Shown: piece by piece, positions 2,869 through 58,020 of the stretch
How the letters are laid out: each line of letters begins with the position of its first letter
How positions within the stretch are numbered: the stretch's first letter is position 1
Assembly (NCBI GenBank): GCA_964574655.1
Contig: CAZNOH010000002.1
Span: 108,596 to 172,595, forward strand
DNA length: 64,000 nt
Direction: 5' to 3'
Source of the DNA: an uncultured Candidatus Saccharibacteria bacterium
Lineage (GTDB): Bacteria; Patescibacteriota; JABMPQ01; JAQVVF01
The notes under the pieces: model-generated
The model's input: only the letters and a program-made list of their open reading frames with translations
Database searches by the model: none
What the model was told of the DNA's origin: nothing
Program-made: the position numbers and the translations under genes

Positions 2869-2988
2869 ATGGTAAAATATAATACGAATACGAGTACGAA
2901 TGATGCGAATGATACAAATTACGAATCGACGCATTCGTAATTCGCAATATTCGCATTATTCGTATTGTCATTCGTATTATATTTAGAC
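2869..2988. repeat. intergenic palindromic element, tacgaat/attcgta word subfamily
   Basis: aatacgaatacgagtacgaatgatgcgaatg...acgaatcgacgcattcgtaattcgcaatattcgcattattcgtattg. It shares ttcgcattattcgta and the terminal cattcgtattat with the copies at 32420-32556 and 57887-58020. Confidence 0.8.
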
Positions 2989-4650
2989 ATGTTCAAAAAA
3001 CAGCCCATAATATTAGCAATGGCCATAATTATTTACGTAGCATTTTTCACAATGTTATGTTTTTTGAAATACGACAATTTTTTATATCAAGAATTAGATT
3101 TAGGCATAATTAATCAAGTTTTTTACAATTTAGCAAACAATATTTCATTTTACTCGGCAATACAAAATCAAAGCTATCTTGGCGACCATTTTTCGCCAAT
3201 CATCATTATATTATTGCCATTTTATTATTTTTTTCAAAGTCCAAAAACATTATTGATTTTGCAGACTATTATTTTAAGTTTAGCAGCAATTCCAATCTAT
3301 CTGATTGCAAAAGAAAAACTCAAAAACAAAAATCTAGCACTAATTGCCGGTCTAATTTTCTTAGCTAATCCAGCATTGCATAGCGTTAATTTATATGAGT
3401 TTAGTTTTTTGTCTTTTGCCGTTTTTTTATTGCTAGTTACATATCATTCATTCCAGAAGAAAGTGTTTTCTTATTTTCTTGTTTTCTTATTGCTATGTTT
3501 GCTAGTTCGTGAAGATCTCGCTCTAATTATATTCATGTTTGGAATCTATGCTTTATTAAAAAAACGCCAACTAAAATGGATTCTGCCACCAATGATTATA
3601 AGCATTATTTACTTTATTTTAAGTTTAAAAATAATTAGTTATTTTAATGTTGATAATAGTTACAAATTTATAATTCACTATTCATGGCTGGGGAATAGCA
3701 TCAGGGATTTATTCATTAATTTTTTTCTAAAATTTCCAGATATCTTTTTACACTTTCTAAATTTAGAAAACATAATATTTATTTTATACTTATTAATTCC
3801 AGTTTTTTTCTTACCAGTTTTTGGAAAAAAGACGCTTATATTTTTTATTCCAATTCTACTCCAATTTGGCTTGGCAAATTCTGGATTTAAAGGCATCTTT
3901 TTTACTCATTATCTATCATTATTTGTTCCATTTATTTTTATATCCGCAATCTATGGTGTTTCTCTAATTCTATCTCCAATACGTCTAATGCCATCTCGAA
4001 TTCAGTCATCAAAGATTTATAAGAAAATTTGTTTTGGTAAAATAAAAATAAATTTAGGCAGAAAAGAATACATTTTAATTTTATTTCTATTAATTTTTAT
4101 AACAATTTCTAGCAATATTGGTTTTAGTCCCTCATACAATTTGCCCAAAAAGCTAATAAAAGTTGATTCAGAAAAAGGTAAAAACAAACAAAATCTAGTT
4201 GATGAAATTCCAAAATGCCGATGCTCTAAAAATTACATTTTAGCCACAAATGATTTCTTGCCAGTCTTATCTAACAACGAAAATTTATACTCAGCTTTTT
4301 ATTTGGTAAAAGGAAAAAAGCAATATTCAAATCAGGATTATGATATTCCAAAATTAAATTATGCTTTAATCAATTATGAGCAATTTATTAAGAGCTGTCA
4401 GAATCAAGAAAATTTATCGCAGAATAAAAACATTTGTAAACAGGCAAAAAAGAGATTAAAAAATGTATTATTGCAAAACAAGCTTTCGCCAAAAAAAATA
4501 ATTGAAAATAATGTTTTATATTCTAGCAATTATCAATCTGAAAAAACATTTCAATCTTTGCAAAAAAAAGAATCAGATATTATCATTAATCTAAGCAAAA
4601 AGAAATATAATGTTATGCTTGACGAATCATCATTAGAAATTGAAAATTAA
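2989..4650 (+). CDS. polytopic membrane protein, DUF2079-like (putative GT-C-type envelope glycosyltransferase)
   Basis: At least 10 hydrophobic segments. N-terminal motifs LDLGIINQVFYNL and YLGDHFSPIIIILLP resemble the DUF2079 family. ATG 2989 is preferred because the upstream TTG start lies inside the palindromic element. Confidence 0.5.
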   Translation: MFKKQPIILAMAIIIYVAFFTMLCFLKYDNFLYQELDLGIINQVFYNLANNISFYSAIQNQSYLGDHFSPIIIILLPFYYFFQSPKTLLILQTIILSLAAIPIYLIAKEKLKNKNLALIAGLIFLANPALHSVNLYEFSFLSFAVFLLLVTYHSFQKKVFSYFLVFLLLCLLVREDLALIIFMFGIYALLKKRQLKWILPPMIISIIYFILSLKIISYFNVDNSYKFIIHYSWLGNSIRDLFINFFLKFPDIFLHFLNLENIIFILYLLIPVFFLPVFGKKTLIFFIPILLQFGLANSGFKGIFFTHYLSLFVPFIFISAIYGVSLILSPIRLMPSRIQSSKIYKKICFGKIKINLGRKEYILILFLLIFITISSNIGFSPSYNLPKKLIKVDSEKGKNKQNLVDEIPKCRCSKNYILATNDFLPVLSNNENLYSAFYLVKGKKQYSNQDYDIPKLNYALINYEQFIKSCQNQENLSQNKNICKQAKKRLKNVLLQNKLSPKKIIENNVLYSSNYQSEKTFQSLQKKESDIIINLSKKKYNVMLDESSLEIEN

Positions 4651-4653
4651 TTT

Positions 4654-6246
4654 ATGTTAAGTAGCATTACGAAAAAAGAATGGCTCGTAGTTTCATTAAT
4701 TGCTTTAATAACAATTACTATTGTTATTGCGCCATATTTATTTGGCTATTTTACTACTCCTCAAAACATGATTTTTACTGGCGTTACTTTTGATCAGGAT
4801 TATTCCTATTTCTCCATGATGGAGCAAGCAAAAGAAGGAAAAATACTATTCAAAAATCTTTATACGTCAGAAGACCATCAGGCAATTTTTTTCAGGCCGT
4901 TGTTTTTATTTATGGGGCTATTTGCAAAATTTTTGCATCTGTCCAATTTTTTTGTTTTCCATTTATTTAAAATAATTTTTGTTGCCATTTTTATATTTTT
5001 GGCTTACAAGTTCATCTCAATCTTCTTTAGCGAAAAAATAAATCGCATAATTTGTTTGATAATTCTTCTATTTTCATCAGGTTTTGGTTTTTTAGGGCAG
5101 AGATTATTTAGTTATCTATCAACAGATCTTTGGATACCAGAATCACAGACCTTTGCTTCATTTTTCACTCAGCCTCATTTTGTTTTATCGCAAATTTTAA
5201 TTCTAGTTTGTTTTATTTGTTTATTAAAGAAAGAGCTTCGTTTTGCTCTCTTGGCAGGTCTGGCAAATTTTATTTTAGGTTTAGAGCATCCATTCGATTT
5301 GCCTGTCACGCTTTTAGTCCCATTTATTTATTTCATAATTTTATTCTTCTGGAAAAAAGAAAACAGAATTATGAATTATCTAATTTATTGCGCTATCTCA
5401 GTCGTACCAGTTATCTATCAATATTGGACAATGAAGATTGAGCCTATTGCCAAAGCCTGGAATGATCAAAACATTTTGAAATCGCCAGAAATTTTAGCCT
5501 GGATAGTCGGTTATGGCATCATCACAATCTTTGCAATTATTGGTTTCTTAAAATTTTTCAAAAATAAAAATAAAAATTTATTATTAATTAATATTTGGGC
5601 AATTGTTAATGTCTGTTTGCTATATTTGCCAGTCAATTTTCAAAGGCGAATGTCTGAAGGCTTGCATATTCCCTTGACTATTTTGGCAACTTTCGGTATT
5701 CTCATGGTTTATAATTTTTTGAATAAAAAAAGCATTAAGCACAAAATTCACACCCATATTCCAAAGATTGCTTTTTTATGGGTAATCGCTTTATCTCTGC
5801 CTTTTAGCAATATAAATCGCGTTGCTAATTATTTCAATAATTATGCTAAAGCAAAAGCATTGCCTTATTATTTCAGCCAGGACTTTTTTCAAGCTACAAA
5901 ATACTTTAACGACAATAAAATATTTGATCAAACAATTTTGGCTTCGCAAAAAAATGGTCCATTCATTTCAGGTCTGACAACAAACAGAGTTTATCTTGGA
6001 TTTGTTTTTCAGACCAAAGATTATTCTATCAAAAAAGATACTGTTGCATGGTTCTTCAAAGATAATCAGAAAATTAAACAAAAACAAGAATTTTTGCAGA
6101 AGAGAAATATCAAATATATCTTGTACGGTCCAGAAGAAAAAAAGCTTGGCAAAATTAATTTAGACAAAAAAGACTTCTTGGAAAAAGTCTATCAGAATGG
6201 TAGTTATGCTATTTACAAGATAAATGACAAAAAAACAAAAACTTAA
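4654..6246 (+). CDS. polytopic membrane protein with a C-terminal soluble domain (GT-C-like glycosyltransferase candidate)
   Basis: Many transmembrane segments followed by a hydrophilic ~150-aa tail. It lies 4 nt after the previous gene. Confidence 0.45.
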   Translation: MLSSITKKEWLVVSLIALITITIVIAPYLFGYFTTPQNMIFTGVTFDQDYSYFSMMEQAKEGKILFKNLYTSEDHQAIFFRPLFLFMGLFAKFLHLSNFFVFHLFKIIFVAIFIFLAYKFISIFFSEKINRIICLIILLFSSGFGFLGQRLFSYLSTDLWIPESQTFASFFTQPHFVLSQILILVCFICLLKKELRFALLAGLANFILGLEHPFDLPVTLLVPFIYFIILFFWKKENRIMNYLIYCAISVVPVIYQYWTMKIEPIAKAWNDQNILKSPEILAWIVGYGIITIFAIIGFLKFFKNKNKNLLLINIWAIVNVCLLYLPVNFQRRMSEGLHIPLTILATFGILMVYNFLNKKSIKHKIHTHIPKIAFLWVIALSLPFSNINRVANYFNNYAKAKALPYYFSQDFFQATKYFNDNKIFDQTILASQKNGPFISGLTTNRVYLGFVFQTKDYSIKKDTVAWFFKDNQKIKQKQEFLQKRNIKYILYGPEEKKLGKINLDKKDFLEKVYQNGSYAIYKINDKKTKT

Positions 6247-6355
6247 AAAACAAACAAAACACAAATAACAAAAAACAAACTATAATTCAAAGTTTGTTTT
6301 TTTTGTAGTTTGTAATTTGGAATTTGTTTGTTTTTTGTCTTTTTGTAATTTTATT
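6247..6355. repeat. intergenic palindromic element, acaaaca/tgtttgt word subfamily
   Basis: aaaaacaaacaaaacacaaataacaaaaaacaaact...agtttgttttttttgtagtttgtaatttggaatttgtttgttttttg. Same subfamily as 31454-31597. Confidence 0.75.
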
Positions 6356-6358
6356 TTT

Positions 6359-7945
6359 TTATTTCAGTTTATAAATTCTGCAATATTTTGAATCAAATAC
6401 TTTTTCAAATCTATCATCATCATTAAACATACTAAAAACTTTCTTATTCTTATTATTAACTAAAACATAATTAGATTTAAAGTCGTTTTTTATAGTCAAA
6501 TAAGCATCATCTTCTTCTTTTGAAATATTTTGCCATTTATTATACAAATCCAGATTATAATTATAAGTAAAAGTAGGGTCTAAGCCAAAGCCATAATAAT
6601 TTTCACTATTATTCAAAAATAATGGTGGAAAATCGCTCCAATCTAGATTCAAAATAATAGTATTTTTGGGTGTATTATTTTTAATCCAAAGAGCAGCTTT
6701 CTCTAAATCTGGCACATTTTTGGCCGAAGAATTGCCAATGCTGGCTTGTGCAGAAATCATATTGCTTACCCCAATAGAGATGATAGCAACTAAAACAAAA
6801 AGAAAAGCAAAAGACTTAAAAAATAAAAGAAAATATTGTTTTAGCCATGTTCTAATAGAATAAAAATGTTGTTTATTTTCTAAGACAATCAAAATTTGCT
6901 TAAACCATTTTTGATAATCTATTCTCTCCAATAAATCGCTCAAACAAAAAGCGCCAAAAAGTAAACAAAGAGGAACCATTAATTCAACAAATCTTTGTGA
7001 TCGCAGAGTCAAAGCAAAAAACAAAGTTGAAATAACAAAAAGAGTTATTTTAAAAGCAAATAGCTCTTTTTTTATTTTGTATTTTTTCAAAATAATATCT
7101 ATTATCAAAACAACAATTCCAGCAACATATGCGACAACTGCTAAAAAATTATTGGTCAAAAAATCCCAATCTTTGAACGGAGACCATTCTGCCCCAACTG
7201 GAATTTTTGTAAATGGCCCAGTTCCCAAAACTTGAATTTTCAAAAAAGAATAGAAATTTCTAGCATAGGGATTAGTCAAAATACTTAAAACAATTGCGCC
7301 TAAACAAATCAATATTTCTTTCCATTCAAATCTTTTTACAAAAATTAATCTAGTTAAATAAAAAATAAAAGCAAAAATAATTAAAAATATAAAACCGCCA
7401 TATAGCCAAACATAAAAGAAAGAAAACAAGGCAATCAAAAAATATTTCAGCCATTTAATTTTAAAATCATAATAAAAGCTAAACAAAATCATAATCAAAA
7501 AAAACAAAGATAAGGCAGGCACGCGGATCAAAATCATTCTAAACAAAAAAGAGCTTGAACTAAACAATAATAAAATCGCCCACCAAAAAGAAAAAGAAAT
7601 CTTATTTTTTTCTAGAATTAAATAAAAAGCCAGAACAGCTAAAGACGCAAACAGAATATCAGCAATCTTTGCGCCAATTATTGGATCTATTGCAACGAAA
7701 GGGATTAACAGAATATGAAACAAAAAATGATGATCAACGTAATGATCTTTCAAGGTAGAGAATTGCATCCACGGAAAATCTTGAAAAACAAATTTTCCGT
7801 CAATCATCATCTCCGTAATTTTGACATGATAATAAGAATCAGGACACAAAAATAATTCCAGCGAAAATTGCAGAATAGAAAAAACAGTTACAGCAATTAA
7901 GAAAACTAAAATATACTTTAAAATTTTGAAATTTCTTTGTTTCAT
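6359..7945 (-). CDS. polytopic membrane protein, ArnT/PMT-like GT-C glycosyltransferase candidate
   Basis: 12+ hydrophobic segments and a C-terminal periplasmic-type domain. Family assignment is by architecture only. Confidence 0.45.
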   Translation of the reverse strand: MKQRNFKILKYILVFLIAVTVFSILQFSLELFLCPDSYYHVKITEMMIDGKFVFQDFPWMQFSTLKDHYVDHHFLFHILLIPFVAIDPIIGAKIADILFASLAVLAFYLILEKNKISFSFWWAILLLFSSSSFLFRMILIRVPALSLFFLIMILFSFYYDFKIKWLKYFLIALFSFFYVWLYGGFIFLIIFAFIFYLTRLIFVKRFEWKEILICLGAIVLSILTNPYARNFYSFLKIQVLGTGPFTKIPVGAEWSPFKDWDFLTNNFLAVVAYVAGIVVLIIDIILKKYKIKKELFAFKITLFVISTLFFALTLRSQRFVELMVPLCLLFGAFCLSDLLERIDYQKWFKQILIVLENKQHFYSIRTWLKQYFLLFFKSFAFLFVLVAIISIGVSNMISAQASIGNSSAKNVPDLEKAALWIKNNTPKNTIILNLDWSDFPPLFLNNSENYYGFGLDPTFTYNYNLDLYNKWQNISKEEDDAYLTIKNDFKSNYVLVNNKNKKVFSMFNDDDRFEKVFDSKYCRIYKLK

Positions 7946-11782: not shown

Positions 11783-11875
11783 TGAATTAGGGCTTATTTT
11801 AGGAAAAAAAGCCTCAAAATAGCCAAAAAGACTGGATTTTATTAAAGCTTTGAAGTATACTTTGAATATATTCAA

Positions 11876-12010
11876 AATTCTAAACTCTAAATCCTAAATA
11901 AATCCAAAATTCAAATAACCAAAAATAAGAATATCGCCGAACTTTGAAAATTTGGATTTTGAGTTTTTAATTTGTTTAGAGTTTAGAATTTAGTATTTGG
12001 AGTTTTAAAA
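11876..12010. repeat. intergenic palindromic element, ctaaat/atttag word subfamily
   Basis: ttctaaactctaaatcctaaataaatccaaaattcaaataacc...gaatatcgccgaactttg...ttggattttgagtttttaatttgtttagagtttagaatttagtatttggag. Confidence 0.75.
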
Positions 12011-30322: not shown

Positions 30323-30334
30323 TATTAAGTATTA

Positions 30335-36071: not shown

Positions 36072-36202
36072 AATCCTAAATCCTAAACTCTAAATTCTAA
36101 ATAAATTCAAATTACAAAATTAAAAATTCAAACAACGACGATTTTGTATTTTGGATTTTAAATTTATTTAGAATTTAGTATTTAGAGTTTAGAATTTAAT
36201 TT
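36072..36202. repeat. intergenic palindromic element, ctaaat/atttag subfamily (centre caaacaacgacgattttg)
   Basis: aaatcctaaatcctaaactctaaattctaaataaattcaaattacaaaat...attttgtattttggattttaaatttatttagaatttagtatttagagtttagaattt. Confidence 0.75.
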
Positions 36203-36964
36203 ATGTTTAGTAGTATCTCCGCCTATTTCTCAACATTTACTTTAATAAATTACATCACAACAATTTTAGACATTGGAATTGTTGCTGTTTTAATTTACTT
36301 TGTTTTTGCTTTTGTCAAAGGTACAAAAGCAACCAGAATTATTTATGGCATAATTATCTTAAGCATAGTTGTTGTCATTGGCAGATTATTAAGTCTGCAA
36401 ACTTTGAATTGGGTGTTGTCGCATTTAACATTATTAATTATTGTTGCAATACCAGTTGTCTTCCAGCCAGAACTAAGGCGTGCTTTGGAGAGACTAGGCC
36501 GTGCAAAATTCATTGGAAGCAACAAAAAAATGTCATTGAATGTTAAGGACATAATTCAGGCAATCGATATTTTAAAGAAAAATAAAATCGGTGCCTTAAT
36601 AGTTTTACAACGCAAGACCGGATTATTGGAATATATAGAATCTGGCACAGAGCTTAATGCCAATTTATCAACGGCATTATTATTAAATATATTTTTCCCA
36701 AATTCTCCGTTGCATGATGGTGCAGTAATTATATCTTCCAACAAAATTTTAGCAGCAGGTTGCATGTTGCCTCTTACAGAAGGCGAATATTCTTTAACTT
36801 ATGGCACTCGCCACAAAGCAGCTATCGGCGTTACCGAAAATACTGATGCTGTTGCTCTAGTTGTCTCTGAAGAAAGAGGAGAAGTATCTATTGCTGTTGA
36901 TGGCCAACTTGAAGAAAAAATAGGTGTTGATAAATTAGCGAACAAATTAGAACAATTAGTCTAA
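36203..36964 (+). CDS. cdaA: diadenylate cyclase CdaA (DAC domain)
   Basis: Three N-terminal TM helices, then DAC motifs GALIVLQRKTG, LHDGAVII and TRHKAAIGVTENTDAVALVVSEERGEVSIA. Confidence 0.85.
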   Translation: MFSSISAYFSTFTLINYITTILDIGIVAVLIYFVFAFVKGTKATRIIYGIIILSIVVVIGRLLSLQTLNWVLSHLTLLIIVAIPVVFQPELRRALERLGRAKFIGSNKKMSLNVKDIIQAIDILKKNKIGALIVLQRKTGLLEYIESGTELNANLSTALLLNIFFPNSPLHDGAVIISSNKILAAGCMLPLTEGEYSLTYGTRHKAAIGVTENTDAVALVVSEERGEVSIAVDGQLEEKIGVDKLANKLEQLV

Positions 36965-37098
36965 AATTTCTAATTTCTAATTTCTATTAAATTTTCATTG
37001 CTTCAATTTCTAAACTCGTCGACGGCGAACAGGTTTGAAAATTTATGCATTATAAATTTAATAAAAATTAGAAATTAGAAATTGAAAATTAAGTAACC
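36965..37098. repeat. intergenic palindromic element, ttctaattt/aaattagaa subfamily (centre aactcgtcgacggcgaacagg)
   Basis: aaatttctaatttctaatttctattaaattttcattgcttcaatttctaaactcgtcgacggcgaacaggtttgaaaatttatgcattataaatttaataaaaattagaaattagaaattgaaaatt. Confidence 0.8.
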
Positions 37099-39535: not shown

Positions 39536-39569
39536 TCTCTTTCCTCCTTTTGTTTCAGACTGGCTTAAA

Positions 39570-39596
39570 TTTATAATATTTTGCCTTAATAGTCAA
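39570..39596 (-). promoter_or_regulatory. sigma70-like promoter (TTGACT ... TATAAA) for 39158-39535
   Basis: The reverse complement reads cttgactattaaggcaaaatattataaattt. Confidence 0.4.
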
Positions 39597-39903
39597 GTTT
39601 GCTTAACCAATCTAACTAGTTTAACTTTTCTAACCAGTCTAACCTTTTAATCTTGCCAAAAAAATTTATTTCTGCTATACTAAAAGAGTTAGATAACAAA
39701 TTCTAACATTATTAAATTAATTAACAGTCGCATCTGTAAATTGTTGAATTAAATCAAAATTTTACTTTAAGAATTATGTTTGATCTTGAAAAACATCTTT
39801 ATTCAAGCCAAAATCACTCAGAAATTACACTTATCAAGCTGATAAGCTCGTTTTAAAACCAAAGAAGAAATTTATTCACTTTTTATGGATGTGATGCAAT
39901 GAA

Positions 39904-41436
39904 ATGAATAGTCTAGTATTAATTGCAGTTGCTTCTGTTCTTGCGCTGGCCTTAGGCCTAGTAATCGGCTACATCTTAAGAAAGCTAATTGCCAAAAGCA
40001 GGCAAGATTCAGTTGAAGCAAAAACTCAAAATTTAGTAGAAACTGCAAAAGTAAAACAAAGAGAAATCCTATTAGAAACAAAGACTCAAGCTCTCGAAAT
40101 TAAAGAAAACGCTGAAAAAGAACAGCGAGAAGGAAGAGCCAAGCTTTTAGATTTTCAAGGAAAATTATCCCAAAGAGAAGGGATTTTGAATCAGAAATTA
40201 GAATCAATATCTCAAAAAGAAGAACAGCTAGAAAAAGGCAATCACACAGTCCAAAGAAAAACTCAAGAATTAGTCGAAATCCGCAAAAAGCAAATGGCAA
40301 CATTAGAAAAAGTTGCTTCTTTATCACGAGAAAAAGCCAAGGAAGTTCTTTTAGAAATGGTTGAAAAAGATCAGCAAGATCGTGTTTTAGAAATTGTCAA
40401 AAGAGCGGAAGACCGTGCCAAGGACGAGGCAGATACAAAGGCTCGCAATATTATTTCCCAAGCTATTGAAAAATATGCTCGATCTCAAGCTTCCGAATCA
40501 ACAGCTACAACCGTATCTTTGCCTTCTGATGAAATGAAGGGCAGAATTATCGGTCGTGAAGGCAGGAACATCAAGAAAATAGAAGAGCTTTGCGGTATTG
40601 AAATTGTTGTTGATGACACGCCAGAGGCAATCGTCATTTCTGGGTTCAATCCAATCAGGCGCCACGTAGCCAAGAGAACATTAGAAAAATTAATTCAAGA
40701 TGGTCGTATTCATCCAGCCAAAATTGAAGAAACAGTTGAGCAGGTCAAAAAAGAGATTGCTCGTGAAATCAAAGAAGCTGGCGAGCAAACAGTTTACGAA
40801 CTTGGTATTGCCGACTTAGATACAAAATTAGTTCAGTTATTAGGTCGTTTGCAATTCAGATCATCTTATGGCCAAAATGTTTTAAAGCACTCAATTGAAG
40901 TTGCGAATTTTTCCAAAATAATCGCTTCCGAGTTAGGAGCTGATGTTGAAATTGCTAAAAGAGCTGGCTTGCTTCATGATATTGGCAAGGCTGTTGATCA
41001 TGAAATTGAAGGAACGCATATTGAAATTGGTAAAAATATCTTGAAAAAGTTTGGCGTTTCCGAAGCAATCATTCATGCAATGGAATGTCATCATGAAGAT
41101 TATGAGCCAAAAACAGTTGAAGCAGTAATCGTTAAAGCTGCTGATGGAATTTCAGGTGCCAGACCAGGAGCTCGAAAAGACACTTATGAAAATTACATAA
41201 AACGTTTAACTGATCTTGAAAACATTGCGTTAAGTTTTGAAGGCGCTGAAAAAGCTTATGCTATTCAAGCTGGCCGTGAAGTTCGTGTTTTTGTCACTCC
41301 TGACCAAGTTGATGATTTAGCGGCTAAGAAATTATCTCAGAACATTGCTGACAAAATAGAAAAAGAATTAAAATATCCAGGCGAAATTAAAATCAGTGTA
41401 ATCCGTGAAACTAGAGCTGTGGATTTTGCTAGATAA
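39904..41436 (+). CDS. rny: ribonuclease Y
   Basis: N-terminal TM, coiled coil, KH domain (GRIIGREGRNIKKIEELCG) and HD domain (LHDIGKAVDHE). Confidence 0.9.
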   Translation: MNSLVLIAVASVLALALGLVIGYILRKLIAKSRQDSVEAKTQNLVETAKVKQREILLETKTQALEIKENAEKEQREGRAKLLDFQGKLSQREGILNQKLESISQKEEQLEKGNHTVQRKTQELVEIRKKQMATLEKVASLSREKAKEVLLEMVEKDQQDRVLEIVKRAEDRAKDEADTKARNIISQAIEKYARSQASESTATTVSLPSDEMKGRIIGREGRNIKKIEELCGIEIVVDDTPEAIVISGFNPIRRHVAKRTLEKLIQDGRIHPAKIEETVEQVKKEIAREIKEAGEQTVYELGIADLDTKLVQLLGRLQFRSSYGQNVLKHSIEVANFSKIIASELGADVEIAKRAGLLHDIGKAVDHEIEGTHIEIGKNILKKFGVSEAIIHAMECHHEDYEPKTVEAVIVKAADGISGARPGARKDTYENYIKRLTDLENIALSFEGAEKAYAIQAGREVRVFVTPDQVDDLAAKKLSQNIADKIEKELKYPGEIKISVIRETRAVDFAR

Positions 41437-41567
41437 AAAAATAACTCGCTAATAGTTTGCGAATATTTGCTAATCTTTTGCTAATAAAGTTTATTTCATG
41501 GTCATTGTCTTTTACTTTATTCGCAAACTATTCGCAAATATTAGCAAATTATTAGCGATCAACTTTT
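41437..41567. repeat. intergenic palindromic element, tagcaaat/atttgcta subfamily
   Basis: It shares tcattgtcttttactttatt and ttagcaaattattagcgat with the copy at 43582-43745. Confidence 0.8.
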
Positions 41568-42359: not shown

Positions 42360-42510
42360 AGAATAAAAATTCTAAATTCTAAATCCCAAACTCTAAATAA
42401 ATTCAAAATTTAAATTTCCAAAAGTTTCAAAAATTTAGAATTTTGGATTTTATATTTATTTAGAATTTAGAATTTAGTGTTTAGGATTTTTTTTAAAATA
42501 AAAATAATTT
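42360..42510. repeat. intergenic palindromic element, ctaaat/atttag subfamily
   Basis: aaattctaaattctaaatcccaaactctaaataaattcaaaatttaaatttccaaaagtttcaaaaatttagaattttggattttatatttatttagaatttagaatttagtgtttaggatt. Confidence 0.75.
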
Positions 42511-43581: not shown

Positions 43582-43745
43582 GAAAGTTATTAACATTTGA
43601 TCATTTGCTATTATATTTTGGCTTAGTTATAATAAAAACAACTTCGCTAATCATTTGCTAATACTTGCGAATAATTTGCTAATAAAAATTATTTTATGAT
43701 CATTGTCTTTTACTTTATTAGCAAATTATTAGCGATTAATGAAGG
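43582..43745. repeat. intergenic palindromic element, tagcaaat/atttgcta subfamily (sister copy of 41437-41567)
   Basis: cgctaatcatttgctaatacttgcgaataatttgctaataaaaattattttatgatcattgtcttttactttattagcaaattattagcgat. Confidence 0.8.
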
Positions 43746-43757
43746 GTGGTGATAAAC

Positions 43758-51870: not shown

Positions 51871-53286
51871 ATGTTAAAAATAGACCCAAACAATTTAAAA
51901 AATCCACAAGAATTTGAAAAAATATCCAAAGAAGCGCAGGAGTGCGATCATTTTAATTATGTTGGTGAATATGGAGTGAGATCTTATCAAACAATGTTAG
52001 CAATTGACGAAGCTCTAGAAAAAAATCCTCAATTCAAAAATGAAGACCAAGAACTATACAAAAAATATTGCGATCTTAGTCTTTATCTAAAATTTCATAA
52101 TTTAGAACGCTTACCAGAAGATAATAATGTTTTAGAATTACTAGAAAAAAATTTTTGTGATGCTTTAAAGAAAAATCTTAATTTAGAAGAATGGCTCAGA
52201 GCAAAAGTAATGATGATCGGTCTTCCTTTTCGAAATGAATTTCTCGAAAAGACACTTTCTGCCATCAAAAAAAATCTGCAAAAAATTGGCACAAAAAACA
52301 TTATAATTAGCAATAAAGAAGTAGAACCAACTATTCAAAATTGGATCAAAGATTATGAATATACTTCTGAGCCAGGCATTCACTCTTTGCTTGAACGCAA
52401 TGACTATTTTATCCATTCTAAAAACGTTAGAAATTTAAATGAAGATGAAAAAAAGCAAATCAAAATGCTTTTGCAACTTTATGATAAATTACATCTGAAA
52501 GTAACTGATATTGGAGGCTTGGGGAGCTATCCGCCGTCAATGTACGGCATTGATCTAAAAAAGCCAGTTGCAGTCGAAGATTTTACTACTAAAGAATTAC
52601 AAAAAGTTAACAAATCAGTTCAGGAATCAGCCGGAACTGTTCATCCCATTCCTTTTCCAACTTCAAAAACAGAAAAACGAGAAAAAATGCTAGCTGAAAA
52701 CAAAAAAGAAGCTGAAAAAGCAATGCAAGGCGCTGTTGATATAAAAAAGCTAGAAGCACAAGAGCCAGGAAATAAATTTATCACGTCTTTGAAAAAAATT
52801 GGCAAACCAAGAAAAAAAAATGAAAAAATAAAAACAGCAGAAACAAAAGTAATTAAAGCAGTGCCTGAAAAAGAAGTTGTTGAGGAAATTTCAAAACCAG
52901 AAACAGAGCTACCAAATCCTCCTAAAAAAGTTTTTCATAAAGAACACAAAGTTTTAACATCCTCAAAGCCAGTTTCAGCAGAAATCAGCAAAATTAAAAA
53001 TATAAATTTGCTAGAATTCAAAAAACTTGGCGCAACAGCAAAACAAGCTGCTCAAGTTTTGCTTAACAATATCCGCGAAGTTGCGAAAACTCATGATGAG
53101 CGAAAAGCAGCGCAAGAAAATTTTATGAAAAGTCCTTTATTCAAATTATACGAAGCAATCGCAAATCAAAGCACATCAGAAAAGAAATCAGTCAGTCAGA
53201 TAGCAGAGGATAGAAAAAAACAAGGAACAGAGTTTCTTACTGAAGACGAATATATTGCGGTTAAAAGCATCAGTAAGCTAATTTAA
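51871..53286 (+). CDS. hypothetical charged (K/E-rich) protein in the T4SS-like cluster
   Basis: 471-aa ORF, no recognisable motif. Confidence 0.5.
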   Translation: MLKIDPNNLKNPQEFEKISKEAQECDHFNYVGEYGVRSYQTMLAIDEALEKNPQFKNEDQELYKKYCDLSLYLKFHNLERLPEDNNVLELLEKNFCDALKKNLNLEEWLRAKVMMIGLPFRNEFLEKTLSAIKKNLQKIGTKNIIISNKEVEPTIQNWIKDYEYTSEPGIHSLLERNDYFIHSKNVRNLNEDEKKQIKMLLQLYDKLHLKVTDIGGLGSYPPSMYGIDLKKPVAVEDFTTKELQKVNKSVQESAGTVHPIPFPTSKTEKREKMLAENKKEAEKAMQGAVDIKKLEAQEPGNKFITSLKKIGKPRKKNEKIKTAETKVIKAVPEKEVVEEISKPETELPNPPKKVFHKEHKVLTSSKPVSAEISKIKNINLLEFKKLGATAKQAAQVLLNNIREVAKTHDERKAAQENFMKSPLFKLYEAIANQSTSEKKSVSQIAEDRKKQGTEFLTEDEYIAVKSISKLI

Positions 53287-53458
53287 AATTTCGAATTTTA
53301 AATTTTAAATAAATTTCGAAATAAGAATTTTAAAATTCGTTGCAGAGTTTTAAGCTACTGGTTCTGCATAAAATGGTAAAGAAGCAAGTAGTAGTCATTA
53401 GAAATTAAAGAATTTAAAATTTATTTTAAATTTGAAATTATAAATTTGAAATTAACGT
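53287..53458. repeat. intergenic palindromic element, aaattt/ttaaaat word subfamily
   Basis: aaaatttcgaattttaaattttaaataaatttcgaaataagaattttaaaattcg...attagaaattaaagaatttaaaatttattttaaatttgaaattataaatttgaaatt. Confidence 0.7.
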
Positions 53459-53893
53459 ATGCAATACCCAATTCCACAATTTGTTGAAATAGAGGACCAG
53501 ATTATTGGCCCGCTCACTCTCAAACAGTTTTTCTTTTTGCTTGGTGGTGGAATATTTCTATTGATTTCCTGGTCTTTTGTTGATCTCGCATTATTTATTT
53601 TTTTAGCAGTTATCGTTGGTTTCATAGTCGTGCCATTGGCTTTTGTCAAGCCATACGGACGTCCGTTGACAAATTATCTTTCCGCAGTTTTTAAATATAT
53701 ACTTGGCCCAAAGATACTAGTCTGGCACAAAAGTAGCAGAGCTCCAAGAGTAAAAGCTTATGATCTTGCAAATAAAAAGAAAGGTCCTGAAAAAATTACA
53801 ATCGGCGAAAAAAAGTATACACCGAGCAGTATTCACCGATTGGCAAGGCAATTAGATTTTAAGACAGTAATGAGCGAAGACGAAAAGAAGTAA
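53459..53893 (+). CDS. PrgI-family / VirB3-like small T4SS membrane protein
   Basis: MQYPIPQFVEIEDQIIGPLTLKQFFFLLGGGIFLLI, then a second TM. This matches the PrgI-family N-terminal signature and precedes VirB4. Confidence 0.55.
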   Translation: MQYPIPQFVEIEDQIIGPLTLKQFFFLLGGGIFLLISWSFVDLALFIFLAVIVGFIVVPLAFVKPYGRPLTNYLSAVFKYILGPKILVWHKSSRAPRVKAYDLANKKKGPEKITIGEKKYTPSSIHRLARQLDFKTVMSEDEKK

Positions 53894-53956
53894 TTTTAAA
53901 TTTCGAATTTTAAATTTTAAATAAATTTTAAAGTTTCTAATTTTAAAATAATATAA
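53894..53956. repeat. short intergenic palindromic element (ttttaaattt words)
   Basis: aattttaaatttcgaattttaaattttaaataaattttaaagtttctaattttaaaat. Confidence 0.6.
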
Positions 53957-54313
53957 ATGCTTAAAGAAAAAGATAAGCAATACGATTTAGAAGAAAGAAC
54001 CGCAAAATTTGCAGAAGGCATAATCGATCTTTGCCAAGGCCTACCGCAAACAGCAATTACTAAGTCAACGATAAGCCAGATAATTCGTTCAAGCTCAAGT
54101 ATCGGCGCAAACTATTGCGAAGCAAACGGCGCAAGCTCAAAAAAAGATTTTAGGAACAAAATATTTATCTGTAAGAAAGAAGCTCAGGAAACACGATATT
54201 GGATAAGAATATTGGCTAAATGTTTACCAAACAAAAAAGAAGACTTGCGAAATCATTGGAAGGAGTGTCAAGAATTAACACTAATTTTTGGTAAAATTGC
54301 ATCAAAGTTATAG
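53957..54313 (+). CDS. four-helix-bundle protein (TIGR02436, 23S-rRNA-IVS-type family)
   Basis: About 118 aa. EERTAKFAEGIIDLCQGLP...IIRSSSSIGANYCEANGASSKKDFRNKIFICKKEAQETRYWIRIL. Confidence 0.7.
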   Translation: MLKEKDKQYDLEERTAKFAEGIIDLCQGLPQTAITKSTISQIIRSSSSIGANYCEANGASSKKDFRNKIFICKKEAQETRYWIRILAKCLPNKKEDLRNHWKECQELTLIFGKIASKL

Positions 54314-54377
54314 CAATTTAAAATTAAGTAATTTGAAATTTAATTAAAATTCGAAATTTTAAATTTAAAATTGAGTA
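54314..54377. repeat. short intergenic palindromic element
   Basis: caatttaaaattaagtaatttgaaatttaattaaaattcgaaattttaaatttaaaattg. Confidence 0.6.
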
Positions 54378-55121: not shown

Positions 55122-55244
55122 GAACAATTTTAAATTATAAAATTTTAAAACTAGAAAAACGAAACTAGTCAAAAAATGGTTTTGAAATTAAATATTTAAA
55201 ATTTATTTGAAATTTGAAATTGAAAATTTGAAATTAGCAAAACT
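55122..55244. repeat. intergenic palindromic element separating the two VirB4 parts
   Basis: caattttaaattataaaattttaaaactagaaaaacgaaactagtcaaaaaatggttttgaaattaaatatttaaaatttatttgaaatttgaaattgaaaatttgaaatt. Confidence 0.7.
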
Positions 55245-57080
55245 ATGCAAGATAAAGACTTACCAATCGGTAAAAAAAATATTGAAAATATAAGTCAAGC
55301 CGAGCAAGAAGAGATTCTTAAGGCTGAAGAAATTTACAGAAAGGGTCTGGTTTCGATTCGCGATATTATTGCGCCAAGTGCTTTGCAAGTCAATCCAAAT
55401 TATCTTAAATTAGGTGATAAGTTCGTCAGAACTATATTCATTTTTACTTATCCTCGTTTTGTCAATACTGGCTGGTTTGCTCCAGTCATTAATATGAATA
55501 TTGAAGCTGATATGGCAATGTATATTTCACCTGTTGAATCAGAAAAAATATTAAAAACATTAAAAAATAAAGTAGGACAAATTCAGTCAACTATTGCCGG
55601 AAAACAGGAAAAAGGTGATGTCCGAGATCCAATGCTAGAAACAGCATTAAATGATGTTGAAGAACTTCGTGATCGTTTAATTCAGGGCACAGAAAGATTT
55701 TTCCATTTTGCATTATATATCACTCTTTATGAGAATTCTGAAAAAAAACTAGATAAAACCACCAAAGAAATAGAGGATCTATTAGGTCAAAGACTGATCT
55801 ATTCAAAGCGAGCATTTTTTCAAGCTGAACAAGGATTTAATACCACAACGCCATTAGGTCTTGACGAGCTTGGCGTTCTTAACAATTTTAATACTTCACC
55901 TTTATCAACTAGTTTTCCATTTGTTTCTTCGGAATTGACTTCTGATGAAGGCATTCTTTATGGAATCAACCGCCACAATAATAGCTTGATTTTATTTGAT
56001 CGTTTCTCCTTGCCAAATGCCAATTCAGTAGTATTCGCCACATCTGGTGCTGGTAAAAGTTACGCCGTTAAATTAGAAATATTAAGGTCTTTAATGTTTG
56101 GTACAGAAGTTATAGTCATTGATCCAGAAAATGAATATAAATATTTATGTGAATCAGTCGGCGGAACATTTTTGAAAATGTCTCTAGAGTCAGAATACAG
56201 ATTGAATCCTTTTGATCTGCCATCTGCAATTTCTGGAATGAAAACCAAAGATATTATTCGGTCAGCAGTTATTAATATAAAAGGTTTGCTTAGAATTATG
56301 CTTGGTCGTTTGACAAAAGAAGAAGATGCTTTGCTTGATAGCGCAATTATTCAAACTTACGCCAAAAAAGATATAACTCCAGATTCTGATTTATCAAAAA
56401 TAGAAGTTCCAACAATGAAAGATTTGCAAGAAATTCTTGAAGGCATGCAAGGAGCAGAAGACATTGTTCCAAGAATAAAAAAATATACAGAAGGAACTTT
56501 TGCCGGTCTTTTGAATCAGGCAACCAATGTCCAAATTGACAATCCATTTGTTGTTTTTAGCATTAGAGATTTAGAGGACGAGTTACGTCCAATTGCCATG
56601 TATGTTATTTTAAATCACATCTGGAATATCGTCAGAGCTCAAATGAAAAAAAGAATTCTAGTTGTCGATGAAGCATGGTGGATGATGCAATATGAAGAAT
56701 CAGCCAGATTTATGTATGGCATTGCCAAAAGAGGAAGAAAATATTATCTAGGCACAACAACAATTTCTCAAGATGTTAATGATTTCTTAACATCAGATTA
56801 TGGAAAAGCAATCGTAACAAATTCCGCATTGCAATTGTTATTAAAGCAGTCTCCAGCCTCTATTGATTTATTAAAAAAAACTTTTTATTTAACTGAAGAA
56901 GAAAAATATTTATTATTAGAATCAGATGTTGGTGAAGGAATTTTCTTTGCAGGTTCAAAACATGTTGCAATAAAAATAGTTGCCTCATATTCTGAAGATC
57001 AGATTATTACAACAGATCCAAAACAATTACTAGAGCTAGAACAGGCTAAGAAAAATTACGAAGAAGAGCAAAACGCATAA
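55245..57080 (+). CDS. VirB4/TrbE-family T4SS ATPase, central and C-terminal ATPase part (split gene, part 2)
   Basis: IIAPSALQVNPNYLKLGDKFVRTIFIFTYPRFV, Walker A FATSGAGKSYAV, Walker B ILVVDEAWWMM. Confidence 0.65.
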   Translation: MQDKDLPIGKKNIENISQAEQEEILKAEEIYRKGLVSIRDIIAPSALQVNPNYLKLGDKFVRTIFIFTYPRFVNTGWFAPVINMNIEADMAMYISPVESEKILKTLKNKVGQIQSTIAGKQEKGDVRDPMLETALNDVEELRDRLIQGTERFFHFALYITLYENSEKKLDKTTKEIEDLLGQRLIYSKRAFFQAEQGFNTTTPLGLDELGVLNNFNTSPLSTSFPFVSSELTSDEGILYGINRHNNSLILFDRFSLPNANSVVFATSGAGKSYAVKLEILRSLMFGTEVIVIDPENEYKYLCESVGGTFLKMSLESEYRLNPFDLPSAISGMKTKDIIRSAVINIKGLLRIMLGRLTKEEDALLDSAIIQTYAKKDITPDSDLSKIEVPTMKDLQEILEGMQGAEDIVPRIKKYTEGTFAGLLNQATNVQIDNPFVVFSIRDLEDELRPIAMYVILNHIWNIVRAQMKKRILVVDEAWWMMQYEESARFMYGIAKRGRKYYLGTTTISQDVNDFLTSDYGKAIVTNSALQLLLKQSPASIDLLKKTFYLTEEEKYLLLESDVGEGIFFAGSKHVAIKIVASYSEDQIITTDPKQLLELEQAKKNYEEEQNA

Positions 57081-57217
57081 TGAATTTACAATCTTCAATA
57101 ATCAATTTTCAATAAATTTCCAATTTACAATTTCCAAATCGCGAAAGTTTTTGAAAAATTGATCATTGATAATTTATTGAAAATTGGTAATTGAAAATTA
57201 GAAATTAATTTATAACT
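57081..57217. repeat. intergenic palindromic element, caattt/aaattg subfamily (sister of 491-593)
   Basis: caattttcaataaatttccaatttacaatttccaaatcgcgaaagtttttgaaaaattgatcattgataatttattgaaaattggtaattgaaaattag. Confidence 0.8.
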
Positions 57218-57886
57218 ATGTTCAAAAAATCTTATGTTGTCATTTTAATCGCATTTTTAGCGTTAACAACAACTGCCTTTGGCTGTAAAAAAGCAACGCC
57301 TCCAGCTAATAGTCAGACAGCTAATCAAAATACAAATGTTGTTGCCAACAACACAGCTACGACTGGAAATGAAAACGAATTTCCAATTGTCAATGCCAAT
57401 GAGGTAGCAAATGCAAACATAAATGCCGAGCTAAACATTAATACGCCAGAAAATACTGGCAGTGAAAATATAAATGCAATCGAAAATCAAGGCGAAATAA
57501 AAGTAGAAGAAGATCAAGAAAAAACAGTTTTAGCTCTTGCTTCAAAAATTGCTGAAATCTATGGCACTTTTACCAATAAAGACAAAGAAGCCTACAAGAA
57601 TTTAAAAACAATCAAAACATATTCTACTGACAAAATGAAAAGCTGGATTGATGATCAAGTTGCCAAGCCCATAGATCCAAAAGCCGCTTTCTACGGCGCA
57701 ACAACAAAAACAATCAGCACTGGAATCTCAGATACAAAAGATAAAGAAATGACAGCAATCGTAACCTGCAAAAGAGAAGAAATTACTGCTCAAAACAATA
57801 AGCCAACAGTAAAATATCAAATCTTAAAACTTGAATTTTCTAAAGTCGGAGAAGAATGGAAAGTAAACGGCGCCTATTGGTTATAA
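57218..57886 (+). CDS. lipoprotein (lipobox TTAFG-C) in the T4SS-like cluster
   Basis: MFKKSYVVILIAFLALTTTAFGCKK, an Asn/Ala-rich linker, then a globular domain. Confidence 0.55.
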   Translation: MFKKSYVVILIAFLALTTTAFGCKKATPPANSQTANQNTNVVANNTATTGNENEFPIVNANEVANANINAELNINTPENTGSENINAIENQGEIKVEEDQEKTVLALASKIAEIYGTFTNKDKEAYKNLKTIKTYSTDKMKSWIDDQVAKPIDPKAAFYGATTKTISTGISDTKDKEMTAIVTCKREEITAQNNKPTVKYQILKLEFSKVGEEWKVNGAYWL

Positions 57887-58020
57887 AAATAATAATACGA
57901 ATGCGGATACGAATAATGCAAATGTTGCGAATTGCGAATCGTCGTATTCGTAATTCGTATCATTCGCATCATTCGCATTATTCGTACGTTTATTCGTATT
58001 ATGTATAGACGATTTATAAA
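57887..58020. repeat. intergenic palindromic element, tacgaat/attcgta subfamily (centre gcgaattgcgaatcgtcgtattcg)
   Basis: taatacgaatgcggatacgaataatgcaaatgttgcgaattgcgaatcgtcgtattcgtaattcgtatcattcgcatcattcgcattattcgtacgtttattcgtattat. Confidence 0.8.

Follow-up and report, generated by a model that had tools for sequence, protein, structure and literature searches.

Repeated intergenic cores in a Saccharibacteria genome as arms of a predicted hairpin element class widespread in Patescibacteria

Near-identical short sequences recur tens of kilobases apart in the spacers of a 64,000-nucleotide stretch of DNA from an uncultured Candidatus Saccharibacteria bacterium (the window), raising the question of what these cores are and how they came to resemble each other. 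The first-pass annotation had read them as parts of a multicopy, recently proliferating element, an interpretation that our analysis supports in part. The repeated 12-40-mers that it listed are real, about 4 nt from where it had placed them. Its pairing of 32448-32490 with 57905-57945 matches at 40 of 41 positions (in fact 32452-32491 and 57909-57948), with exact-match checks locating the 25-mer acgaataatgcaaatgttgcgaatt at 32452 and 57909 and cgaatcgtcgtatt at 32478 and 57935. A core attributed jointly to 2869-2988, 32420-32556 and 57887-58020 holds for two copies only: ttcgcattattcgta is exact at 2950 and 57972 alone, with two mismatches in the 32.5-kb copy, and cattcgtattat lies on the + strand at 2969 and 32525 and only on the - strand at the third locus (57892). 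The 11-mer attcgtattat is found at the ends of all three elements, on both strands. The pairs proposed for 41437-41567 with 43582-43745 and for 491-593 with 57081-57217 were recovered exactly, as tcattgtcttttactttatt (41502, 43700) and ttagcaaattattagcgat (41541, 43718) in the former and aatttccaatttacaat (491, 57115, and 577 on the - strand) in the latter. Allowing at most one mismatch, ATTCGTATTAT matches 18 times against 2.45 expected; 178 distinct 15-mers are repeated more than 200 nt apart, compared with 25-44 in third-order Markov simulations, and exact repeats reach 31 nt (53286/53898), compared with a maximum of 16-20 nt in the simulations.

We found that the cores are pieces of the arms of imperfect palindromes, about 24 in number and amounting to 4.9% of the window (Table 1). 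These hairpin-forming, non-coding elements are 100-190 bp long and belong to at least seven sequence families. Eighteen palindromes score 22 or higher, whereas block shuffles yield none (maximum 18.4); RNA-fold z-scores range from -3.5 to -13.8, and the predicted RNA stems are AU-rich, with 31-60 base pairs. Their arms consist of phased units of 7 nt, or of 9-11 nt in some families, frequently with a CG-containing apex. Autocorrelation at 7 nt reaches 0.5-0.67 in 12 elements and is weaker in one further element, and its peak lies at 9 nt in the TACGAAT family and at 11 nt in the TTGCTAAT family. Homology had been thought limited to 20-40 nt within otherwise unconstrained AT-rich spacers; instead, whole elements match over their full length (100-140 nt) at 70-88% identity within families, and the spacers are almost wholly element. 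The long inverted repeat around every core had gone unnoticed in the first-pass annotation.

Table 1. Palindromic elements and solo arms in the window (window coordinates).
Element	Position	Strand	Context
CAATTT-family palindrome	472..613		core stem 490-594, 98% complementary, z = -13.8
TCTAAAT-family palindrome, copy a, weaker	2276..2392		
TACGAAT-family palindrome, copy a	2875..2984		next ATG start codon at 2989
ACAAAAA-family palindrome, copy a	6220..6372		convergent genes on either side
TCTAAAT-family palindrome, copy b	11861..12010		core stem ends 13 nt before tRNA-Leu (12014-12098)
Solo arm, G-type, like TTTCTAAT right arm	25585..25655		no partner arm; divergent promoter region
AAGATAC palindrome	30205..30331		upstream of recF, after canonical terminator (30154-30185)
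ACAAAAA-family palindrome, copy b	31452..31590		recF-dciA spacer
TTTCTAAT-family palindrome, copy a	31869..32035		between convergent dciA and c-di-AMP receptor gene
TACGAAT-family palindrome, copy b	32432..32540		directly 3' of conserved promoter TTGACA-17-TAAAAT (32403-31)
GCCAATCT palindrome, related to TACGAAT units	34513..34629		infB-rbfA spacer
TCTAAAT-family palindrome, copy c	34942..35083		inverted relative to copies d/e/f
TCTAAAT-family palindrome, copy d	36063..36204		nrnA-cdaA spacer
TTTCTAAT-family palindrome, copy b	36956..37092		cdaA-ybbR spacer
Solo arm, GTCTAAC-type units	39568..39643		upstream of rny; matches L029 X-recF palindrome
TTGCTAAT-family palindrome, copy a	41436..41567		exact fill of rny-ymdB spacer
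TCTAAAT-family palindrome, copy e	42362..42494		ymdB-galT spacer
TTGCTAAT-family palindrome, copy b	43640..43748		between conserved hup promoter (43605-33) and hup SD/ATG
TTTAAAT-family palindrome, copy a	53274..53459		about 100 nt in loop
ORF-bearing version	53892..54372	+	inverted arms 53892-53956, 54308-54372 around PF05635 gene 53957-54313
TTTAAAT-family element, copy d, weak palindrome	55122..55244		
CAATTT-family palindrome, copy b	57079..57210		between virB4-like gene and next gene
TACGAAT-family palindrome, copy c	57889..58006		
TCTAAAT-family palindrome, copy f	61405..61575		

The elements are not confined to this genome, the families reaching distantly related Patescibacteria. The TACGAAT family is present in Roizmanbacteria, Paceibacterota, Colwellbacteria and other Patescibacteria MAGs, a Saccharibacteria MAG carries a related 233-bp palindrome of the TACGAAT unit type, and other families likewise occur outside the window genome. 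We compared a 20-kb locus of the syntenic relative L029, whose genes are about 80% identical to those of the window at the nucleotide level. Terminators, promoters and Shine-Dalgarno (SD) sites are conserved between the two, whereas in eight of nine shared spacers the element belongs to another family, and the L029 elements are matched best by window copies at non-orthologous positions. The only spacer element with a recognizable homologue at the orthologous site is that between recF and dciA (31452..31590), where the differences are mostly unit indels. Since the flanks are conserved and yet the families are reshuffled from one orthologous spacer to another, the elements appear to have been copied or replaced in the course of evolution. 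Copying rather than convergence, as the first-pass annotation had argued, is further supported by the end-to-end alignment of family members, by a non-repetitive, non-palindromic apical loop common to paralogues, by the recurrence of such loops and of asymmetric bulges in family members at unlinked loci and in different genomes, and by another genome with two 100%-identical copies, one at each junction of infC-rpmI-rplT. The sequences thus support the view that the cores are homologous copies. That proliferation was recent is not supported: the copies in the window are old, at only 70-88% identity.

Window elements span gene gaps from stop codon to start codon, the median distance of these codons from the stem base being about 2 nt (d5) and 9 nt (d3); in other MAGs, the gaps between element and flanking codons are 0-6 nt. 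They stay outside reading frames except for the last few codons: the left arm of the element at 34942..35083 supplies the final seven codons of rbfA together with its stop, and the stem base of that at 36063..36204 takes in a stop codon and the AT of an ATG. A pilin-like gene whose stop is at 468 precedes the element at 472..613, and the next gene starts at 614. Such placement could mean that, through the stem, the stop codon of one gene is brought close to the start of an SD-less gene downstream; a ribosome terminating there would either open the base of the stem, making the start site accessible, or pass over the hairpin to it. The proximity of both codons to the stem base would fit this translational coupling or shunt, as would the lack of an SD in most genes that follow elements and, in a Roizmanbacteria-type subfamily, the ATTT+ATG found after the 3' end in 7 of the 12 copies with an ATTT tail. 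However, that spacing is not kept in the window's own TACGAAT copies, most window genes with no preceding element are equally SD-less, and other elements separate convergent genes, precede a tRNA or lie on either side of promoters. Moreover, spacers that lack an element measure 0-25 nt in this compact genome, and any tolerated insertion would adjoin both codons. We therefore regard coupling as improbable.

The conserved promoters TTGACA-17-TAAAAT (32403-31) and TTGCTA-17-TATAAT (43605-33) lie immediately upstream of elements, and copy b of the TACGAAT family, which starts right after the former, would therefore constitute the 5' UTR of infB. Canonical terminators with a GC stem and T-tract (30154-30185, 2836-2873 and 44064-44090) are separate from the elements, some of them adjoining palindromes; the element at 2875..2984 is preceded by one of these (2836-2873) and by a TGnTAAAAT box. 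A host function is conceivable, in which immobile hairpins evolve in place as terminators or attenuators, as 5' or 3' mRNA-stabilizing structures or as inter-gene insulators, and copies resemble each other because they use the same low-complexity units and are now and then subject to gene conversion. In this sense, almost all palindrome-holding window spacers hold a palindrome of another family in L029, as a need for some hairpin would predict; a few elements end in a T-run (42362, 61405), those that start at predicted transcription start sites could protect the mRNA with a 5' hairpin, and the unit indels between recF and dciA fit slippage. Against this, the true terminators are separate and conserved between species while most palindromes lack a T-tract, and palindromes sit within universally co-transcribed units (infB-rbfA, cdaA-ybbR, infC-rpmI-rplT). 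The loops and asymmetric bulges common to unlinked loci and different genomes, together with the permutation of family identity, also speak against evolution in place. Nor are G.U pairs enriched on the sense strand: arm mismatches there comprise 49 A.C and 43 G.U, with no RNA strand bias, and the one family alignment examined contains a single compensatory pair, so that there is no positive evidence of selection on RNA pairing, which also weighs against the reading that we favor below. Overall, a host regulatory role seems unlikely, if better placed than the other alternatives.

The symmetry of the palindromes at the DNA level and the same absence of RNA strand bias would suit arrays of protein-binding sites or cruciforms, for instance for nucleoid proteins or replication factors phased at 7 or about 10 bp, as would the regular phasing (9-11 bp for TRCNAAT, close to one helical turn) and the solo arms that lack a partner. 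Such arrays would nevertheless require many binding specificities for the many unrelated units of one genome and would have to accommodate frequent family replacement at each site; a 7-bp phase does not keep sites on one helix face, and no candidate binding protein was identified. We consider this reading highly improbable.

The first-pass annotation had suggested looking for a cognate transposase or Y1/HUH gene; neither this nor any other mobilizing enzyme is encoded among the approximately 47 ORFs of the window or in the 20-kb L029 locus (precomputed Pfam for L029), and we could delimit neither a clear target-site duplication nor an empty site. If a Y1/HUH transposase from another part of the genome moved the elements as single-stranded DNA, as in REP/RAYT or IS200/IS605-type systems, this would account for multicopy intergenic repeats that form hairpins, and replication-tied transposition could produce the orientation bias of the bulge AAAGAAAT, which lies in the 5' arm on the sense strand in all ten aligned copies of the Roizmanbacteria-type subfamily. 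Yet, besides the absence of such a gene from the window and the L029 locus, the elements are single symmetric palindromes rather than distinct left-end and right-end subterminal hairpins, they are three to five times the length of REPs with no end resembling the conserved REP 5' tetranucleotide, and copy c of the TCTAAAT family is inverted relative to copies d, e and f although all lie between + strand genes. This origin is quite improbable.

A further clue comes from the PF05635 '23S rRNA intervening-sequence protein' (IVP) gene, which is bracketed by 65-nt inverted arms. Their inverted-repeat score of 37 exceeds the shuffle maximum of 24, although TTCGAA units, being self-complementary, confound this case (scores of 32.6 for inverted and 24.5 for direct repeats), and the left arm shares its 31-nt exact repeat with 53286-53316. 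A small four-helix-bundle IVP gene occupies a hairpin loop in five of the seven contexts tested; complementary heptamer-unit arms surround the IVP genes of L029, L005 and L032 and, more weakly, those of L035, L038 and L008, whereas the L041 gene has none. In L029, an IVP-bearing hairpin lies in a spacer whose window counterpart holds an ORF-less one. We know of no catalytic activity of IVP. The loops of ORF-less elements contain no IVP remnants and no termini are common to all families, which therefore need not all share a single origin with the IVP-bearing form; an evolutionary link between the two forms is nonetheless plausible. The 23S rRNA intervening sequence (IVS) of Coxiella, which RNase III excises, is bounded by inverted repeats at its termini, encodes S23p in its loop and contains heptamers repeated in tandem (PMC4990558). 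CPR rRNA genes are reported to contain insertions of two sorts, some that encode IVP and short ones that lack an ORF and lie where IVS are known to insert (PMC11270868).

Collectively, these observations make it probable that the elements are MITE/IVS-like selfish hairpin DNA, co-transcribed and probably processed by RNase III, and the sequence comparisons point to a hairpin element class widespread in Patescibacteria whose arms are the repeated cores. With the selfish behavior of MITEs or REPs, they would take nearly every permissive intergenic gap of a compact genome, being copied from gap to gap by a putative machinery and replacing one another in the course of evolution. Placed downstream of a promoter and ahead of a start codon, or separating two cistrons, they would be transcribed along with their neighbors, and the AU-rich stems formed in the RNA would then be cleaved by RNase III.

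Among known repeats, the Correia/NEMIS elements of Neisseria are similarly abundant intergenic inverted repeats of 100-150 bp that can supply stop codons or lie in 5' UTRs and, as predicted here, are co-transcribed with neighbors as long RNA hairpins; in Neisseria, these hairpin RNAs are RNase III substrates. Correia hallmarks are a 26-bp TIR, an IHF site and a TA duplication; none could be demonstrated in our elements, which show no Correia sequence similarity and differ in their phased 7-11-nt unit arms, their many families and their host clade. REP/BIME and REPIN with RAYT are likewise extragenic palindromes inside operons of compact genomes that evolve as families within a genome, but they are shorter, begin with their own 5' tetranucleotide and have no RAYT counterpart near our elements, in which one family often gives way to another at a fixed site. 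ERIC/IRU, RUP and Rickettsia palindromic elements are also imperfect, non-coding, dispersed and about 100-150 bp long, and sometimes overlap gene 3' ends, as at rbfA; their sequences are unrelated, and to our knowledge they have neither unit-periodic arms nor a CG-containing apex. Integron attC sites (such as the Vibrio cholerae repeats) are imperfect palindromes of 60-140 bp between co-oriented genes and also keep structure more than sequence, whereas our elements are flanked by core housekeeping genes in conserved synteny rather than by cassettes, with no integrase found and no consistent R''/R' core sites. The closest parallels are with the 23S rRNA IVS of Coxiella and Leptospira (PMC4990558): like the elements here, these are stem-loops inserted as selfish DNA, with inverted repeats at their termini, heptamers repeated in tandem along the arm region, short ORF-less forms and a sporadic occurrence across lineages, and their loop can house a four-helix-bundle PF05635 gene. 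IVS are inserted in 23S helices 9/25/45, while the elements described here lie between protein-coding genes (one before a tRNA), mostly lack an ORF, comprise many families in one genome and have stems far longer than the 28 bp of the Coxiella IVS. RNase III excision is established for the latter; if our elements are cleaved in the same way, they would be mRNA counterparts of the 23S rRNA IVS.

The best-supported reading of the repeats in the window is that they belong to a Patescibacteria-wide class of hairpins resembling MITEs and rRNA intervening sequences (IVS), co-transcribed and probable substrates of RNase III. The shared cores reported by the first-pass annotation proved to be parts of long palindromes, recovered by an inverted-repeat search and by a palindrome-alignment scan, which we used because MFE-based hairpin counting was not discriminating and exact 6-mer chaining was too strict. 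The window (AT-rich, about 32% GC) holds 18 strong palindromes, against 0 in composition-preserving block shuffles, and about 24 elements when some six weaker ones are included, for a total of 3.1 kb or 4.9% of its length. These ORF-less elements measure 100-190 bp, have arms that are 71-98% complementary, and as RNA are predicted to form single stems with 31-60 base pairs (-31 to -54 kcal/mol; z = -3.5 to -13.8). Every element is found between protein-coding genes or ahead of a tRNA. Median distances from the stem base are about 2 nt to the stop codon upstream and about 9 nt to the ATG downstream, and the base at times takes in the last codons of a gene (rbfA) or part of the ATG; the first-pass description of the surrounding DNA as unconstrained spacer fails, since a palindrome typically fills the spacer. 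The arms consist of phased short units, with a 7-nt periodicity that is clear in 12 elements and weak in one more, and with periodicity peaks at 9 nt in the TACGAAT family and at 11 nt in the TTGCTAAT family. The apex often bears a CG-containing motif (CGTCG/CGACG) amid AT-only sequence.

An exact-match check found all of the repeated motifs of the first-pass annotation in the window, and repetition there exceeds chance: where Markov simulations give 25-44 distinct repeated 15-mers, the window has 178, and its longest exact repeat measures 31 nt, compared with 16-20 nt in the simulations. Sharing across three loci was narrower than had been claimed: ttcgcattattcgta has an exact copy in only two of the three, and cattcgtattat occurs in the third locus on the opposite strand only. 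All-against-all blastn of the elements, as had been proposed, groups them into families: TCTAAAT (six copies), TTTAAAT (four), TACGAAT (three, plus the related GCCAATCT), ACAAAAA (two, plus AAGATAC), and TTGCTAAT, TTTCTAAT and CAATTT (two each). Each family has 2-6 copies in 64 kb, which are 70-88% identical across their whole length, and paralogues have non-palindromic loop sequence in common (alignment A1); the copies are therefore homologous but not young. Of the proposed recently proliferating multicopy element, copying and multiplicity stand, and the evidence does not show recent activity; the analysis bears the observation out and greatly extends it, and its interpretation was partly right.

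Positions of repeats, palindromes and neighbouring features in the window and in other loci (L029, syntenic locus of a related species; L028, another locus)
Feature	Sequence	Positions	Remarks
40/41-nt match	window	32452-32491; 57909-57948	
TTGCTAAT pair	window	41502/43700; 41541/43718	
CAATTT 17-mer	window	491; 57115	
Palindromes matching pre-miRNA models	window	490-594; 31473-31574	MIR5185, mir-727 and other models, at permissive thresholds
Solo arms	window	25585-25655; 39568-39643	each upstream of a gene
Solo arm	L028	2196-2253	upstream of a gene
GC-rich palindromes/structures	window	22560-22610; 38299-38340; 44108-44185; 46423-46524	second spacer class
GC-rich palindrome/structure	L029	18676-18848	second spacer class
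Extended -10 box TGTTAAAAT, 6 nt (CATTTC), ATG	window	44210-44235	upstream of uvrD; conserved
Extended -10 box TGTTAAAAT, 6 nt (CATTTC), ATG	L029	19325-19349	upstream of uvrD; conserved
Block with clustered strong GGAGG-type SD sites	window	8011-15063	minus strand; GC higher, 35-48%
Neighbouring genes with such SD sites	window	17693; 20233; 20809	
Tandem 12-mer AAAAAAATCAAC, three times	window	7966-8003	spacer between two minus-strand genes
PF05635 (IVP) gene	window	53957-54313	E = 7e-18; between inverted arms
Extra small genes in three spacers	L029	5114-5485; 9565-9942; 15953-16588	window has palindrome only there

Comparison with L029, a 20.7-kb syntenic stretch whose genes are about 80% identical in nucleotides to those of the window, revealed extensive turnover. 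The spacers of L029 conserve canonical terminators, promoter boxes and Shine-Dalgarno (SD) sites, but not the palindromes: in eight of the nine shared spacers a different family lies within conserved flanks, and only the spacer between recF and dciA keeps a recognisable homologue. The elements of L029 find their best matches in non-orthologous window copies, as with the ymdB|galT element, which is 84-91% identical to the cdaA|ybbR element of the window. The same pattern recurs in the rny|ymdB spacer, where the window and three further relatives (L023, L025 and L026) differ in their element, and between two Roizmanbacteria-type genomes. No clean empty orthologous site was found in these comparisons. 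In-place drift would be the alternative account of such differences, and the shared family repertoire at permuted locations argues instead for copying or replacement; we consider it likely that the elements are mobile repeats.

Other structures also occupy the spacers. Solo arms, that is, unit arrays without a complementary arm, are present, as is a class of GC-rich palindromes and structures, one of which, a three-way structure lying between uvrD and ksgA, is very stable (-50.6 kcal/mol). Where the window has its TTGCTAAT element in the hup 5' UTR, L029 has a GC-rich structured insert instead. Among the extra small genes of L029, one encodes a '23S rRNA intervening-sequence protein' (IVP, or S23p; PF05635) and two have no Pfam match, and the three spacers concerned appear to be general insertion sites.

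The elements extend well beyond the window. A scan of the TACGAAT termini against one genome per species returned 21 loci, about 16 of them real hairpins, in Roizmanbacteria, Paceibacterota, Colwellbacteria and other Patescibacteria MAGs; one match in a Saccharibacteria MAG falls inside a related 233-bp palindrome with the same unit type. Two MAGs with matches are labelled 'Gammaproteobacteria' and have a GC content of 33-37%. For the first, CAYHOJ (L007, L009, L014, L015, L019 and L021), the label looks wrong, because this MAG shares synteny, and 64-73% protein identity, with a Roizmanbacteria MAG; the second, CAYZAZ (L017), carries the same element family. In other MAGs, too, an element starts 0-5 nt after the stop codon and is followed within 0-6 nt by the ATG. 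At infC-rpmI-rplT each of the two junctions has a copy, and these copies are 100% identical; a Roizmanbacteria-like MAG has at least nine copies across sampled loci totalling about 40 kb. The TCTAAAT family also has members in one Roizmanbacteria MAG, CAATTT is present in a different MAG, and a metagenome scan with a 25-mer core gave one locus, a solo arm 91-93% identical to window arms. Phage and plasmid blastn and two viral-contig pattern scans gave no matches to the elements, so that nothing points to a vector of viral or plasmid origin. In Rfam, only tRNA exceeds the gathering threshold in the window and no element family was returned; at E <= 1, the sole matches of the elements are to eukaryotic models of pre-miRNA hairpins, with scores well short of the thresholds of those models, a likely source of false annotation. 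The literature that we searched contains no description of these elements in Patescibacteria (CPR) and no paper linking CPR rRNA insertions or IVS to intergenic palindromes.

The genes of the window (recF, dciA, infB, rbfA, a DHH phosphoesterase, cdaA, ybbR, clpP, rny, ymdB, galT, hup, uvrD, ksgA and a type-IV-secretion-like/pilin cluster) have their nearest protein relatives in Patescibacteria/Parcubacteria MAGs, and there are no rRNA genes among them. Conserved promoter-like sequences stand immediately upstream of the elements before infB (TTGACA-17-TAAAAT) and hup (TTGCTA-17-TATAAT), so that the mRNA would have the element at its 5' end. Other elements separate the cistrons of conserved operons, precede tRNA-Leu or stand between convergent genes, and the one between hup and uvrD is upstream of a promoter. 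At uvrD itself, the short distance between a conserved extended -10 box and the ATG suggests a leaderless or near-leaderless mRNA.

Several conventional roles were considered for the palindromes. An intrinsic terminator needs a U-tract immediately after a short, GC-rich stem, whereas these stems are long and AU-rich and most lack a T-run; since separate terminators with a GC stem and a T-tract were found by scanning and are conserved in L029, the palindromes are not the ordinary terminators of this genome. A general promoter function of the arms was likewise rejected, promoter-like sites showing no enrichment (85 versus 73.5 +/- 10.5 in shuffles). SD sequences are absent from most window genes, and we rejected a link between this absence and the hairpins because most genes lack an SD whether or not a hairpin precedes them. 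The strong SD sites cluster in a minus-strand block that may be foreign or may be a gene set with different expression, and the intergenic spacers of this block contain no palindromes.

There is no sign of RNA-specific selection on the elements. Arm mismatches show no sense-strand RNA bias (43 G.U versus 49 A.C), folding energies of the plus and minus strands are equal, with no sense bias, and ten aligned copies of one Roizmanbacteria-type subfamily differ mainly by CpG transitions, with one compensatory pair. Changes between CG and CA/TG dominate variation within the units of the Roizmanbacteria-type TACGAAT copies (alignment A2), a pattern that would fit CpG methylation and deamination or a CG-specific process. 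An apparent orientation signal, in which the C-type arm comes first, is an artefact, because a palindrome is identical on both strands; true orientation markers are in the sense direction in 10 of 10 cases in one Roizmanbacteria-type subfamily and in both orientations in the TCTAAAT family of the window.

A connection with IVS is suggested by the IVP genes. The flanks of the window IVP gene (63 and 64 nt), each about half the typical element length, together form a 65-nt inverted repeat with a score of 37 (shuffles reach 24 at most), a case partly confounded by self-complementary TTCGAA units. A 31-nt exact repeat is common to the left flank and an ORF-less element lying 600 nt upstream. In the nrnA|cdaA spacer of L029, complementary arms enclose an IVP gene (inverted-repeat score 20.5 versus 6 for direct repeats); the window has an ORF-less palindrome in this spacer. 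In other CPR lineages, complementary heptamer-unit arms around IVP genes are clear in two loci (L005 and L032), weaker in three (L035, L038 and L008) and absent from one (L041). Most elements have no ORF, and IVP is the only ORF found within matching arms. To our knowledge, IVP has no transposase activity. IVP identity across CPR lineages (63-75%) is above that of YmdB and CdaA (49-62%), which suggests horizontal spread; at E <= 1e-8, PF05635 matched 7,998 of the 8,000 candidates scored. The family is extremely abundant and unusually conserved across CPR lineages, and members among the protein hits P0241-P0360 lie between housekeeping genes, for instance before rpoB or between ftsE and ftsX. 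Since a tblastn search of ORF-less loops recovered no trace of an IVP gene, the support for this link comes from architecture, placement and one repeat in common.

The IVS of Coxiella has been described as a selfish stem-loop that RNase III excises, bearing terminal inverted repeats and tandem heptameric repeats and carrying S23p in its loop (PMC4990558). CPR rRNA genes are reported to contain both IVP-encoding insertions and short ORF-less ones, the latter at known IVS sites (PMC11270868). We regard the IVS and RNase III part of our reading as tentative, a possibility somewhat short of probable. A broader proposal, which we think unlikely, is that these are Patescibacteria-wide 'messenger-RNA intervening sequences': selfish rRNA-IVS elements, spread into nearly all intergenic gaps, that would punctuate polycistronic transcripts for RNase III, as tRNAs do mitochondrial transcripts, and yield SD-less, near-leaderless mRNAs. 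The orphan four-helix-bundle protein IVP (PF05635, Avd-like fold) would be encoded by the elements to promote their copying or replacement.

Hairpins make up about 5% of the window and most of its intergenic DNA, and related Patescibacteria lineages carry the same families. If the elements are selfish, genome-streamlined epibionts would be heavily colonised by a mobile element without a recognisable transposase; if they are processed, the hairpins would shape operon expression in a phylum for which there is hardly any work on promoters, SD usage or RNA processing. A true IVS link would give the abundant, functionless S23p/IVP family a genomic context and a testable role, and would partly explain the unusual rRNA insertions of CPR. 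In practice, such elements will fragment assemblies, lead gene-start calling astray and pass for pre-miRNA-like hairpins in annotation pipelines.

Among known systems, REP/RAYT palindromes span about 20-40 nt and have a conserved GTAG-like 5' tetranucleotide and a flanked Y1 gene; the present elements are 100-190 bp long, with no common tetranucleotide evident at the family termini. The Y1/HUH transposase suggested by the first-pass annotation was not borne out, as there is no Y1 gene in the window and no transposase in L029. Integron attC sites were also rejected: the neighbours of the elements are syntenic housekeeping genes rather than cassettes, the window lacks an integrase, and no R''/L''-L'/R'-like core motif common to the families was evident in the terminal sequences inspected. 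MITEs are closer, being short (under about 500 bp), non-coding sequences with terminal inverted repeats and multiple dispersed homologous copies, all of which apply here. Their insertion polymorphism has a counterpart in orthologous sites filled by different families, whereas no consistent target-site duplication was seen, although the AT-rich flanks and the termini ATAAT...ATTAT could hide a TA duplication, and the roughly 47 window ORFs (by Pfam) include no transposase of an autonomous partner. An IVS sits in 23S rRNA helices 9, 25 or 45, whereas these elements lie outside rRNA genes; as in an IVS, however, terminal inverted repeats form a long enclosing stem, and the optional S23p/IVP ORF occupies the loop in the window, L029, L005 and L032. 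The predicted long double-stranded RNA stem looks like a substrate of RNase III, the enzyme that excises an IVS from its transcript.
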